A stretch of DNA of 43,603 bases, the filler included, from Catajapyx aquilonaris (lineage: Eukaryota): assembly GCA_000934665.2 (NCBI GenBank). It is 2 parts of 2 records of this genome, joined end to end, with 100 filler letters (N's around TTAATTAATTAA, not from the genome) between each part and the next. Parts side by side here need not be neighbours in the genome. Positions count along the whole stretch, not along the records: positions 1 to 21,787 come from JYFJ02005994.1; 1 more part is not named here. One strand, written 5' to 3'. Positions 3,056 to 7,663 of this stretch are shown one piece after another. The notes below the pieces were generated by a model. It did not search any database, was not told the DNA's origin, and was given only the letters and a program-made list of their open reading frames with translations. Made by a program: the position numbers and the translations under genes. Within the stretch, counting starts at the first letter, position 1. Each line of letters starts with the position of its first letter.

Positions 3056-3650
3056 TTTATATACTCTTTGGGGAGATGTCGATTTAAAGATGCCAAAGGA
3101 TAAAGGTGAAGAGGAGTATTTCCCGAAGTGGATGGGAATTTCCTACCATAGATTTGGAACAGATAAGTTTAGCATCACTTATTGTGTAATTTACACTGTT
3201 TGACCGAATAATGCGTAGTGAGCTGTCTATTGTGTGTGTCTCAAAAAGCTATTGTTTGCGTGAGATCCAACATGCTAGATAGTTCAATTCTGAGGCATGG
3301 GACGATTAACACACAAATTGATGCATAATAATATTAATATTATTGAAAAACTCAATTACGACTTTTGATCCTGTTGACATCAATCACGTAACGAACTGGA
3401 CGGATTTCATGTCTGGAAATTCCCTCGTTATCTCCATGTTTTGATTACACCACAATCAAGTTTTCAGATGATATTTATTAATTGCGGAATAAAATTTGTA
3501 ATGTGCCAGATTGCCCTTATCAAGCACTTCCATTGAGTGGTAGGAAAGACCCGGCTGTAAAGAGAAATGTTAACAACCAATAATCCAAGACCCCTTTATC
3601 ATCTCCATGTGACAGATTGAGAGATCGTCTAAGAAGGACGCGCTTATAAG
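3056..3650. promoter_or_regulatory. Divergent A1/B1 promoter with kappaB-like, GATA and TATA elements
   Basis: GGGAATTTCC at 3134-3143 and its reverse complement GGAAATTCCC at 3415-3424; variant TGGTAGGAAAGACCC at 3538-3552. GATA cores at 3098-3106, 3161-3167, 3428-3433, 3516-3521 and 3593-3600. TATATAAA on - at 3056-3063; CTTATAAG at 3643-3650. Confidence 0.7.
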
Positions 3651-3710
3651 TAATTGAAAGATCATAAGATATGTCAGTGACTCTATGTGCACCTAGTTAC
3701 AATCACCACA

Positions 3711-5404
3711 ATGCGTTTATTTCTACTCTTCATGTTTGTGGCAGTTGCTGTTGCCAGTAGAATTACTGTTGGGAACCATGCTCTGGATAACGCTTGGACA
3801 CAATTTAAGGTAATTGTTCCATTATTATGTCGCACTAAACTCCACAGTAATAAGCAGTAACTTTCCAACAGCCACACGGCTTAGTCATATTAGAAATATT
3901 TACAATAATATTAGATCAAAATTTGAAATAAATTGCCGTGTAATGGGCTGTAATTTATATTGTGACTATATTGCAGACAAAGTACAATAAGAAGTATGAT
4001 CTGAGCGAAGAATCTTCAAGACGAATTGTATGGGAATCCAATCTTGCATTCATTGAGAAGCACAACCAGGAGGCGGCTCAAGGAAAGCACAAGTACACAC
4101 TGGCAGTGAACAAGTTTGCAGACATGGTCAGTACCCCCATTATAATTATTGCTCAAAATCGATATCGCTATATATATTTATTGTGCACATTGCAGACCAA
4201 CGAAGAATTCAACAAGGCCATGAACAAGTACAAACCAAGCTCTGTGACCAAGAGTCACGTGCAAGTAGATGACGATGGAGACTTTCAGGATGTCCTACCA
4301 GCCGAGGTATATATATAATCATAATTAAAATGCAATAATATTTTATTCCGGTAGTTTTTCACATTTCGTTCTAAATACTGTATAAACCGGCAATTATTGC
4401 AGATTGACTGGCGCGGCAGAAACCTTGTGAGTGACGTGAGGGGCTATGGATACGATGACTTTTGTGGCATTTCATGGATAACCTCCGCTCTCGGTTCTGT
4501 GGAGGGTCAACATGCAAAAGTGACCGGAAATCTAGTGTCTCTCAGGTACAACGTTTCAAATTTTTTGTAATCGCAATTGTGTTAATACAATTCACTTTGC
4601 AGTGCCCAGCAAATTATGGACTGCGATATGGAAGGAGAGGCTTGCGAAGGAGGTCAGATGGAAAGCACGTTTGAATACATCCTGAATTCCGATGGTATCC
4701 AGGATGAAGACACTTATAGATCCACGGGATATGTAAGTCCCATCTTTGACTGAGTTTGTAGCAATTTAAAAATTATCTTATGTATAGAGGTGTCCCAGAA
4801 CACCTTGTGGAAACTCACCCTGTCATGAAAATAATTTGTTTTGCTTGTTTACAGCCAGATAAATGCAAATTTGACTCGAGGCAAATTGCAGCTTCAATAA
4901 AAGGTTATGCGCAATTGAAGTCTGGTAGTGAGCGAGAACTGCAGAGGGCAACAGCTGCTATCGGACCTATCTCTGTGGCGGTAGATGCCTCACCAGGAAG
5001 ATTCCAATACTATTAGTACGTGTACCTAACTTCAATAATAATAATAATAATAATAATAATAATAATAATAATAATAATAATAATAATAATAATAATAATA
5101 ATAATAATAATCATCATCATCATCATCATAGTAATAATACTAATAATAATCCGAATGATACTGTATTACCATTAATTTTTATTGTAGTGGTGGCGTGTTC
5201 GATGGCGAATACTGCTCTCCAACTAATGTCAACCATGGAATTCTGGTTGTCGGATACGGAACCACCGATGACGGAACCGATTACTGGATTCTGAAAAACT
5301 CCTGGGGATACGACTGGGGGGAAAAAGGGTACATGAGACTTGTAAGAAATGGCAACAACACCTGCGGAATAGCCACGAGACCCTCTTATCCAATCGTGTA
5401 TTAA
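3711..5404 (+). CDS. Cathepsin-L-like pseudo-protease B1, 336 aa, catalytic Cys>Ser
   Basis: Exons 3711-3809, 3977-4126, 4196-4306, 4403-4545, 4603-4732, 4855-5015, 5188-5404 (1011 nt, open). Signal peptide and I29 prodomain present. [28 protein letters not shown] has Ser (TCA, 4472-4474). [11 protein letters not shown] and KNSWG are retained. AATAAA at 5457-5462. Confidence 0.95.
5034..5128. repeat. (AAT)n(CAT)n microsatellite in B1 intron 6
   Basis: Read directly; absent from the equivalent B2 intron. Confidence 0.98.
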
Positions 5405-5911
5405 AAGTCAAACCGGTGAAAAAATGTGTGTATTTTATATATCTGTATAAAATTGTAATAAAATATTTTCTTGGTCAGTATGTGAGCTATTATGATTTCA
5501 TCCTGGAATGGCAGGCTTCTCAAACTTTGGAATGACTCCAAGAAGTCGATGATGCTACGATGAGTTTTACTAAAATAATTACCTTGCTCTGGCTGTTACA
5601 TCACCTGGAGTGCGACGTCACCTCAAGGTTAAAGAATAATTCTAACAGTAACTTATTCAGGATTTGGATATTCTGGATAATTATACTAATTAGTAATTAC
5701 AAAAGATTATGTAAAACATCAATACTGTAGTAGGAAATGTACATTATAATAAATAAAATATGATTCGTTGTATATAAAAATCCAGAAGATGCATTATTAT
5801 TTTATAATCTAGGTGCTTCATGACCTTGCTCACGTGGATGCCATGTGCGCACATTATACATGAATCCGATATCCAAACCGGTTCACACATAAAACTACAT
5901 CCTCCTCCGAG

Positions 5912-6760
5912 ATGCTGCTGTCCTTCTGCTTCCTGTCCTTTGCTCTTTGCCCCGTGTCCGCCCGCCCAGGGGCCAAATCATGCCAGATGATGGGCTTCGG
6001 CTCCGACTACAGGCTGGACACAAAGTCCGGCCAGTGTCACGAGACCTGGACAGTCGGACCATGCGGATACCTTCCTGACGTCATGACGTACGTACCAATT
6101 GACGACGTGTACGGAGAGTGCTCTTGCGCAGTGCCCAACATGAGAGTCTGGCCGGCGGACAACATGTGCTACTTTTTGAACTCACAGGTAAGGAGCTGTC
6201 CACACATTACAGAGTATCAAGAACTGGGAAATACTGAGAGTTAATCAGTATGTTTAAACAGACTATTAGTAGCAGGTCCGGGACCCTGTGGTCCTAATGA
6301 AAAATATATAGACTTTATAAAGAGGCGCATATTATCGCTATTTTCGATTCAGGGTCCGTGCAAACTAGGCTACAGATTCAAGTTCAACTCGAGTGGAGAT
6401 CCTCCTGAGTGTGAAGTGGACGCCAATTGTTACGACAGGATGATTCAGACTGGCAGTAGCAGCTGGGTGTCTAAAGATGGCGAGTGCTACGAGGAAGGGA
6501 AGAGAGGCCACCCATGCCCGGACCACGAGATACTGATGCTCCAAGGGTACGAGGAGACGAGGTGCGTGGATCTGCGGGTCGTCACAATCTTCGGGGTTCA
6601 ACCTGACACAGGGGGAGCAAGACAATGCAACAAGGCCCAACAGACAGTACCAAGCTACCTCGGAGGATGTCTTCCAGCTGTCCAGGTTCTTGATGGGACG
6701 GAATGTCCGGAAGGATTCGTGCACCACCCAGCCTACGATGAAGTGTGTGTCCAGGAATAG
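5912..6760 (+). CDS. Secreted cysteine-rich protein D1, 227 aa, DUF4789-like
   Basis: Exons 5912-6187 and 6353-6760, phase-0 GT-AG intron, open. Hydrophobic N-terminus MLLSFCFLSFALCPVSA. Three internal repeats of C(Y/H)x5G(H)PC type: GQCHETWTVGPC, WPADNMCYFLNSQGPC, KDGECYEEGKRGHPC. These resemble the arthropod DUF4789 motif (recalled, not searched). AATAAA near 6813. Confidence 0.85.
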
Positions 6761-7525
6761 AGTAACTTATATGTCACTAGTGAAGCAAATTTGTTGACCA
6801 CATGTTTATGCAAATAAAGTTATATAAATGTACATAAAGGAACGTTTACCATGACCACTTCAGAAGCACAAAATAAATAATATTATAGAACGAGTACCTG
6901 AAAAATTACGCGCACAACACACTTGAACTCAAAATATTACATTATTGGATATGGATCTTGCTGAATGTCCACTTGTCCCAAGGTCACGATGTTGATTGCC
7001 TGCATAGCGGCCAGCACTCACGTATTAATCCGTGCGGAAAGTCCAGCATTTTCACAAACCATCTTGACAATAACAACTCGTTATCGCATCGAAATCTTTA
7101 AAACACACTCATGCTACCCTTATCAGTTGAATTGTTATCTCTCCAATCGATGAAGTCAATGTGATTGCAGGACAACGTCTCGTGCTTATATAATGAAGAT
7201 AACAAGACAATGATCCTACTGAATAAACTAATACATTACTAGTATGCTTGCAACATTGCATTAAATACATTACGAATAACAATGAATTTTTAAATGTTAA
7301 ATTGAGATGCTAAATTCAGTCAAACCTCACAGACGAAGATGAAACCCAATTTAACGCAGAATATTATTTTTTAATTTAGTCCGCGATTTAGTCCATAAGT
7401 GATAGATCGCCGACTGTTTTCTTCTTCAAATCACTTTAATTCACTCAAATTGACAAAATGCGCCGATTCATTGTGACATTTACGATAAGTGAAGTTCAGT
7501 TGAGCCTATATTTCGCAATTCTGAT

Positions 7526-7663
7526 CTTATCACAAGTACTAGCAGGCTGAACAGTGGTAGGAAATCCCCAGTCGCGAAACGACACTTTCTCTCTCCATTA
7601 CCAACAGATTCCTTTATCCATTGATACTGATATACCGTATATCTCAAGTTGAAAGTATATAAA
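7526..7663 (+). promoter_or_regulatory. C1 promoter: GATA - kappaB-like - GATA - TATA
   Basis: CTTATC 7526-7531; TGGTAGGAAATCCCC 7555-7569 (reverse complement GGGGATTTCC); CCTTTATC 7611-7618; TATATAAA 7656-7663, 48 nt before the ATG. Confidence 0.7.

Follow-up and report, generated by a model that had tools for sequence, protein, structure and literature searches.

Why do three lineages of catalytically dead cathepsins, whose upstream DNA can no longer be aligned, keep the same short words in the same order ahead of their start codons? The question is raised by a stretch of DNA from Catajapyx aquilonaris (assembly GCA_000934665.2), 43,603 nucleotides long with filler included and taken up to position 21,787 from JYFJ02005994.1, which as a whole we call the window. 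Between positions 3056 and 7663, the promoters of three genes, A1, B1 and C1, have a cassette core in common: ahead of each ATG, TGGTAGGAAA, two variable bases and CCC are followed by CCTTTATC. This cassette is, with high probability, a true footprint under constraint, and its conserved motifs are probably functional.

The window is arthropod DNA in which a tandem duplication of about 12.5 kb has produced two units. Unit 1 comprises A1 (minus strand, ATG at 3006), B1 (plus strand, 3711), X1 (5912) and C1 (7711); unit 2 comprises A2, B2, a decayed X2, and C2, which is interrupted in exon 7 by a gap at 21788-21887. The unit-1 genes that carry the cassette are as follows.

1400 to 3006, minus strand: gene A1, a secreted cathepsin-L-like pseudo-protease of 7 exons and 331 amino acids (gene model, residues, unit-1 alleles in spliced contigs)
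3711 to 5404, plus strand: gene B1, a secreted cathepsin-L-like pseudo-protease of 7 exons and 336 amino acids (gene model, residues, spliced contigs)
7711 to 9171, plus strand: gene C1, a secreted cathepsin-L-like pseudo-protease of 7 exons and 336 amino acids (gene model, residues, 1188-nt spliced contig)

All of A, B and C are cathepsin-L-like, with a Peptidase_C1 domain (PF00112, E 1e-25 on B1 exon 7), and A1 and B1 are 53% and 52% identical to the active cathepsin L P0265. The set of residues that an active cysteine cathepsin carries (Cys with His, Asn and oxyanion Gln) is incomplete in the A, B and C copies: the catalytic Cys is replaced by Ala in A1 and A2 and by Ser in B1, B2, C1 and C2, and the oxyanion Gln is retained only in C, being Gly in A1. 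C1 keeps Gln, His and Asn beside its Cys-to-Ser change, a Ser-His-Asn set with Gln that we take to be reminiscent of silicateins. In each of the five complete copies the reading frame is open and begins with a signal-peptide-like stretch, and the ratio of nonsynonymous to synonymous divergence (dN/dS) is 0.12-0.30 between lineages and 0.40-0.54 between units. The predicted mature proteins of A and B are very acidic (isoelectric point 4.1-4.6), and that of C is neutral (7.7).

The initiator of a core promoter is a TCAGT-type start about 30 nt after the TATA box. Read in the direction of each gene, CTTATC is followed by the 15-bp word TGGTAGGAAAnnCCC, by CCTTTATC and by TATAAA or TATAAG, and the elements lie at these positions.

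3161 to 3167, plus strand: A1 upstream GATA site AGATAAG, reading CTTATC in gene direction
3134 to 3148, minus strand: A1 15-bp footprint TGGTAGGAAATTCCC, of which 3134-3143 is a consensus kB site, GGGAATTTCC
3099 to 3106, minus strand: A1 CCTTTATC footprint with a GATAA core, GGATAA and so not WGATAR; 7 of 8 bases kept in A2
3056 to 3063, minus strand: A1 TATA box TATATAAA; 8 of 8 bases kept in A2
3027 to 3032, minus strand: A1 initiator-like TCAGTT, whose predicted start base lies 31 nt beyond the first T of TATAAA
3516 to 3522, plus strand: B1 upstream GATA site CTTATCA (TGATAAG)
3538 to 3552, plus strand: B1 15-bp footprint TGGTAGGAAAGACCC, one mismatch from the kB consensus; decayed in B2
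3593 to 3600, plus strand: B1 CCTTTATC footprint, here canonical (TGATAA); kept in B2
3645 to 3650 and 3674 to 3679, plus strand: B1 TATA-like TATAAG and initiator-like TCAGTG, with the 31-nt spacing of A1
7526 to 7532, plus strand: C1 upstream GATA site CTTATCA; deleted in C2
7555 to 7569, plus strand: C1 15-bp footprint TGGTAGGAAATCCCC, of which 7560-7569 is a consensus kB site, GGGGATTTCC; deleted in C2
7611 to 7618, plus strand: C1 CCTTTATC footprint, GGATAA and not WGATAR; kept in C2
7656 to 7663, plus strand: C1 TATA box TATATAAA

The sequence-only reading of this DNA had described CTTATC, a kB-like word, a GATA-like word and a TATA-like box in that order upstream of all three genes, and each of them was located. 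Its interval of 15-25 bp between CTTATC and the next motif has to be corrected to 13, 16 and 23 bp in A1, B1 and C1; the further gaps are 27, 40 and 41 bp to CCTTTATC, and 37, 44 and 39 bp from there to the TATA box. The spacing from TATA to the A of TCAGT is 31 nt in A1 and B1, and C1 has no TCAGT. Transcription is predicted to begin near 3030 (minus) in A1, 3676 (plus) in B1 and about 7690 (plus) in C1. As had also been claimed, the remaining promoter DNA is unalignable: once the motifs are taken out, alignments of the promoters are no better than those of shuffles (z 0.7, 0.6 and 1.7; 71, 81 and 17 of 300 shuffles score as high). The three copies of TGGTAGGAAAnnCCC, at 3134-3148 (minus), 3538-3552 (plus) and 7555-7569 (plus), are the only mismatch-free ones in the window. 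The most stable element is CCTTTATC, exact in five of the six gene copies; it occurs 7 times in the window against 1.57 expected, a count reached in 0 of 100 shuffles.

How surprising such sharing is depends on the history of the genes. A, B and C have six introns in common, at matching positions and phases, and form one clade (support 100) whose sister is P0265, in a quick tree of 31 rows selected from 276 fetched proteins. P0265 keeps its catalytic Cys and has the same N-terminal signature as the window clade. A first quick tree of 75 rows had put the clade near spider cathepsins, a placement that was dropped because it was not upheld once P0265 was added. No orthologous pseudo-protease was found among the 276 proteins, which were fetched with single-exon queries of limited sensitivity. 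Because the genes are paralogues, their promoters are homologous and are not three independent observations, so that neutral descent, rather than independence, is the right null. Divergence between the lineages is near saturation: four-fold sites differ at 0.64, 0.52 and 0.58, with 16 of 51 identical in all three, and introns are at shuffle level (0.68, 0.68 and 0.73 against 0.66, 0.68 and 0.70 for shuffles). Paralogy together with near-saturated introns and silent sites therefore points to one ancestral promoter kept by selection and not to three independent origins.

The longest word common to the three 300-bp promoters is the 10-mer TGGTAGGAAA, and CCTTTATC is a separate, second 8-mer. Of 20000 triples drawn at random from non-duplicated window DNA, 3 had a word of at least 10 bases in common; of 5000 dinucleotide shuffles, none did. 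Simulated neutral descent at a difference of 0.49 left a common 10-mer in 19 of 4000 runs; at 0.55 this happened in 1 of 4000 and at 0.59 in 0 of 4000. The colinear pair of 10-mer and 8-mer never arose (0 of 3000 in each of six settings, 0.52-0.63 pairwise difference); at 0.45 it appeared in 4 of 3000 runs without indels and in 0 of 3000 with them. Word sharing and neutral simulation together thus support a constrained promoter cassette with a kB-shaped core beside a GATA site. A motif scan against shuffled and genomic background had been proposed as a check; against shuffles and window DNA, TGGTAGGAAAnnCCC and CCTTTATC are above chance and the kB consensus is enriched by position only and not window-wide.

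Which factor would read the core of the 15-bp word? The Rel/NF-kB consensus is GGGRNWYYCC. It is matched by A1 (3134), by C1 (7560) and by a distal site of B (3415), as well as at 15704 and 16003, and five of the six gene copies have a consensus kB site within about 300 bp of the ATG. Variation among A1, B1 and C1 is confined to the two central bases of GGAAAnnCCC, with GGAAA and CCC the same in all; retention of the CCC by chance is estimated at about 0.03. Fixed ends and a variable centre are to be expected, since Rel contacts the ends of the kB site according to the available part of PMC3239199. We consider a Rel-family site a likely, though by no means certain, identity for this core. As binding sites for other factors (Runx, Su(H), TCF, Caudal, STAT), the flanks were considered and set aside, since every such reading needs mismatches at core positions.

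The GATA-site consensus is WGATAR. Of the two GATA sites that the sequence-only reading proposed per promoter, the upstream CTTATC fits this consensus in all three (AGATAAG in A1, TGATAAG in B1 and in C1). The downstream site, GGATAAAGG in A1 and C1 and TGATAAAGG in B1, fits it in one of three, with GGATAA in A1 and C1. Because it is canonical only in B1, and because a CCT flank is conserved beyond the GATA core, the downstream CCTTTATC site is best called a footprint with a GATA core, to which the GATA-factor label is not secured. The kB-shaped and upstream GATA sites are promoter-proximal and less than 50 bp apart, with the gaps of 13, 16 and 23 bp given above and one of 3 bp at the distal B site. 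In the background, of 2 exact kB sites none has a WGATAR within 50 bp, and of 67 with one mismatch 18 do.

The second unit and a distal element of the A/B promoter add the following features.

3405 to 3446, plus strand: 42-bp block identical in both units, with the distal B kB site at 3415-3424 and a GATA site, TTATCT, at 3428-3433, 3 bp behind
15569 to 16305, no strand assigned: divergent A2/B2 promoter, with both GGGAATTTCC sites kept (15704, 16003) and the B2 proximal 15-mer decayed (16129-16143)
20340 to 20479, plus strand: C2 promoter, with an 87-bp deletion near 20357 and CCTTTATC kept at 20397-20404

The earlier claim that GGGAATTTCC occurs twice in the A/B divergent promoter and that both copies persist in unit 2 was borne out, at 3134 and 3415 in unit 1 and at 15704 and 16003 in unit 2. 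A2 retains its kB site and has TGGTAG changed to TGATAG. Between units, introns are more alike in the C pair (0.95) than in the A (0.87) and B (0.84) pairs, and spacers are at 0.70-0.75; the excess likeness of C1 and C2 (7569-9026 against 20356-21787) suggests gene conversion.

Expression evidence comes from one RNA run, of unrecorded tissue and treatment, mapped on unit 2 at 80% likeness. It yielded 17 contigs with GT-AG joints. Of the differences listed, 39 of 40 (92 further exist) are unit-1 alleles, and their presence in spliced contigs means that A1, B1 and X1 are transcribed. A spliced C1-type contig of 1188 nt carries the C1 insertions, and a contig of 507 nt matches B2 with no difference. 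Such contigs cannot show transcription starts, and their depths cannot rank B1 against B2. No C2-specific contig was seen among the rows listed, an absence that in a single contig set is not evidence of silence.

A number of results weigh against the Rel-based account that we favour below, and we set them out together. The kB label, which had been attached to all three proximal sites, holds for A1, C1 and the distal B site and fails at the B1 proximal site, where GGGTCTTTCC departs from GGGRNWYYCC by one mismatch. Across the window the consensus occurs 7 times against 3.79 ± 2.47 expected, and at least 7 occur in 14 of 100 shuffles. A positional test does favour Rel (p 4e-4), with 3 consensus sites in the 900 bp of unit-1 promoters and 2 in the 25405 bp that serve as background; it is post hoc and rests on two origins because the A1 and C1 sites share one. 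The TGGTA flank, with a chance retention of about 0.003, lies outside the kB site and is unexplained by it. In unit 2, whose losses the sequence-only reading passed over, the B2 proximal site has become TGGTAGAAAACACCT, with 12 of 15 bases kept and both the GG and the CCC lost, and B2 is transcribed without it, though with the distal site kept; the 87-bp deletion in C2 takes out the first GATA site and the entire 15-mer with its kB site. Retention of the two GGGAATTTCC sites in unit 2 (20 of 20 bases) is weak evidence, with p 0.044 at intron identity, and the 42-bp identical block has p 0.12 at intron identity, reaching 5e-5 only when judged by the middle of the spacer, where identity is 0.72; gene conversion could equally yield this persistence. 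The C1 contig starts near 7578, about 80 bp upstream of the TATA box, so that the transcription start is not pinned; a minor upstream start, read-through and DNA carry-over are candidates for the extension. Finally, differences between A1 and A2 are not significantly clustered in cleft-lining segments (11 of 56 against 18 of 164, p 0.11). In favour of the account, those between B1 and B2 are (25 of 57 against 27 of 166, p 5e-5), with segments of our own choosing in both comparisons, and this clustering is compatible with a binding or decoy role without singling out microbes. B1 and B2 also differ strongly around the former active site (4403-4545 and 16993-17126), including a three-residue indel.

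The losses in lineage B can be accommodated by binding-site turnover, in which the proximal Rel site would decay while the perfect distal kB site with its GATA neighbour is kept. Turnover fits because five of the six copies keep a consensus site and the decaying proximal site falls in the lineage that has a second perfect one. The account that we favour, and hold to be slightly better than an even chance, is that a cathepsin L ancestor handed down a promoter of GATA, Rel and TATA elements, whose sites have turned over in lineage B. The ancestral gene would have had a compact promoter made of a GATA site, the 15-bp TGGTAGGAAAnnCCC, CCTTTATC and a TATA box; as clade, introns and residues show, it lost its catalytic Cys and duplicated into A, B and C. 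The statistics above show that selection preserved these few short words as the intervening sequence diverged to noise. Most likely, expression would be directed to gut, haemocytes or a fat-body-like tissue by a GATA factor and raised upon a signal by a Rel/NF-kB dimer bound to GGAAAnnCCC, and a further factor may act on the TGGTA flank. The trigger would most likely be infection or wounding, and the products may act as secreted binders or decoys and not as cysteine proteases.

Infection inducibility, and with it the effector or recognition module that the sequence-only reading proposed, is plausible, at a little under an even chance. This step is the weaker one because kB misses part of the footprint and because, in the available text of PMC3573115, a moth Relish site serves ecdysone-driven tissue dissociation. 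The boldest version has a cluster under NF-kB control whose secreted papain-fold pseudo-proteases, with clefts that diversify, would be induced to bind microbes or to act as decoys for their protease inhibitors; it adds a co-regulated DUF4789 gene and takes TGGTA-GGAAAnnCCC as a composite site for a Rel factor and a partner, and it is unlikely to hold in full.

The DUF4789 candidate is the neighbouring gene X1, and its promoter bears on the rival explanations.

5912 to 6760, plus strand: gene X1, a secreted Cys-rich protein of two exons (weak DUF4789 matches, spliced contig)
5728 to 5742, plus strand: partial look-alike TAGTAGGAAATGTAC without CCC, upstream of X1, which is unrelated to the cathepsins; lost upstream of X2

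In X1, GTAGGAAAT lies some 180 bp ahead of the ATG, followed after about 40 bp by TATATAAA, and X2 is without the GTAGGAAAT word. X2 itself (18522-19560) looks pseudogenised, with an in-frame stop and small indels relative to the X1-type contig. The DUF4789 matches of X, which are in keeping with an arthropod, are below the Pfam cut-off, and Atlas DUF4789 clusters at 0.83-0.84 offer a lead only; a search for relatives of X1 exon 2, among proteins of 74-237 amino acids, found none. Two DUF4789 genes are upregulated by Wolbachia in Aedes, according to the accessible portion of a preprint (10.1101/2023.09.03.556149). The word GTAGGAAA occurs 5 times in the window against 1.65 expected (2 of 100 shuffles), and 4 of the 5 copies lie on the sense strand upstream of A1, B1, C1 and X1, the X1 copy being without CCC. 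Three further observations concern the surroundings. About 670 bp upstream of C, the two units have an identical 21-bp block (7028-7050, 19885-19905) that holds a near-match to kB, GGAAAGTCCA. TGGTATGGAAATTCC, the cassette word with one extra base and a GATA core nearby, lies on the minus strand of the inter-unit spacer at 11490-11520, and no gene was found behind this copy. An acidic exon-like frame on the minus strand of both units (560-790, 12920-13090) is part of a further duplicated gene. Matches to the cassette pattern in metagenome contigs were set aside: there were 3, about the number expected by chance, and none was near a cathepsin (best tblastn E 0.96).

One possible alternative is a constitutive tissue cassette, in which GATA factors and a further factor reading (TG)GTAGGAAA would give gut or haemocyte expression and the kB shape would be incidental or minor. 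The kB site covers half of the invariant word, TGGTAGGAAA, and leaves the other half out; GTAGGAAA is over-represented, with a copy at the unrelated X1 that does without CCC, although that match is post hoc and has a rough chance of 0.01-0.03 as estimated from composition. It also agrees with this alternative that CCTTTATC is the best-kept element, that all three lineages are transcribed in an RNA run without recorded treatment, and that the scabies mite has its SMIPP-Cs, which are papain-like and inactive, in the gut, as described in the available part of PMC5956821. A tissue cassette does not account for the CCC held at the same offset in all three promoters, for the second perfect kB site with adjacent GATA upstream of B, or for A2, which keeps its kB site yet changes TGGTAG. 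On balance we find it rather doubtful.

A second alternative grants the Rel-homology factor and replaces the signal, invoking ecdysone and Relish in moult or tissue remodelling, or NFAT5 in osmotic stress. In Helicoverpa armigera, the cathepsin L promoter is bound and activated by Relish in ecdysone-driven fat-body dissociation (PMC3573115, in the sections available), and the window genes descend from a cathepsin L; NF-kB control of cathepsin L is therefore already known and need not mean infection. The moth enzyme is, however, an active protease whose orthology to the window genes is not established, and close Rel-GATA pairs lean towards immune enhancers in what is available of PMC13445714. 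As for NFAT5, the distal B site matches TGGAAANNYNY exactly, and A1, B1, C1 and X1 match with A at the first base, but the relaxed pattern is unspecific (27 window matches against 17.3 expected) and does not require the invariant CCC. A signal of this kind seems distinctly unlikely. That the words are neutral relics of common descent or of short gene-conversion tracts, or chance, without function, is highly improbable: the promoters are homologous, a shared 10-mer appears in 154 of 4000 neutral runs at 0.41 pairwise divergence and the element is lost in two unit-2 copies, but at the measured divergence of 0.52-0.64 such a word is all but absent from neutral runs (1 of 4000 at 0.55, 0 of 4000 at 0.59), the 10+8 chain does not arise, and introns and spacers are unalignable.

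The promoter grammar favoured here, an arrangement of GATA, Rel and TATA elements, is itself textbook, and an insect cathepsin L under the control of Relish has already been published. What the footprint adds is a precise, testable handle on a family of dead cathepsins that is otherwise without a function, with natural mutants at hand in C2 (without GATA and kB) and B2 (without the proximal site). If induction is true, papain-fold pseudo-enzymes would join the arthropod immune repertoire and DUF4789 would gain its first context; if it is false, this would be an ordinary conserved tissue promoter. Value also lies in the unexplained TGGTA and CCTTTATC footprints. A literature search found nothing on kB-regulated cathepsin L pseudo-proteases in the incomplete library that was searched.

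Four known systems invite comparison, each by way of sources available in part. NFAT5/TonE sites (TGGAAANNYNY, PMC11464898) are alike in their GGAAA core and pyrimidine-rich 3' end, exactly so at distal B; unlike them, the proximal sites have A and not T before GGAAA, CCC is not needed in TonE, and TonE was described in human cells. The SMIPP-Cs of Sarcoptes scabiei (PMC5956821) are likewise a multi-copy arthropod papain-like family with mutated catalytic sites. They are described as unique to scabies mites and gut-expressed, with kB control unmentioned in the part of that source at hand, whereas the window family is sister to an active cathepsin L. The Helicoverpa cathepsin L gene (PMC3573115) belongs, like those studied here, to the arthropod cathepsin L family and has an NF-kB site a few hundred bases upstream. 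It encodes an active protease and, as binding and reporter assays have proved, is controlled by ecdysone and Relish in metamorphosis; the window genes lack the catalytic Cys and are known from sequence. A parallel in regulatory layout is found in the Rel-GATA modules of Drosophila (Senger 2004, as summarised and retested in PMC13445714), which also place a kB-shaped and a GATA site within 50 bp of each other near the promoter; there, Relish sites stand nearer to GATA sites in IMD-induced than in constitutive enhancers, and orientation is not significant. A GATA site is needed together with the kB site in the moricin promoter of Manduca as well (PMC4742911). By half-site, GGGGA marks Imd targets and GGGA or GGAA marks Toll targets (Busse 2007, as summarised in PMC3113591), so that GGGGA of C1 is of the Imd type and GGGA of A1 and distal B of the Toll type. 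Unlike the Drosophila modules, the cassette described here stands before papain-fold pseudo-proteases and not antimicrobial peptides, and it carries the additional conserved TGGTA and CCTTTATC.

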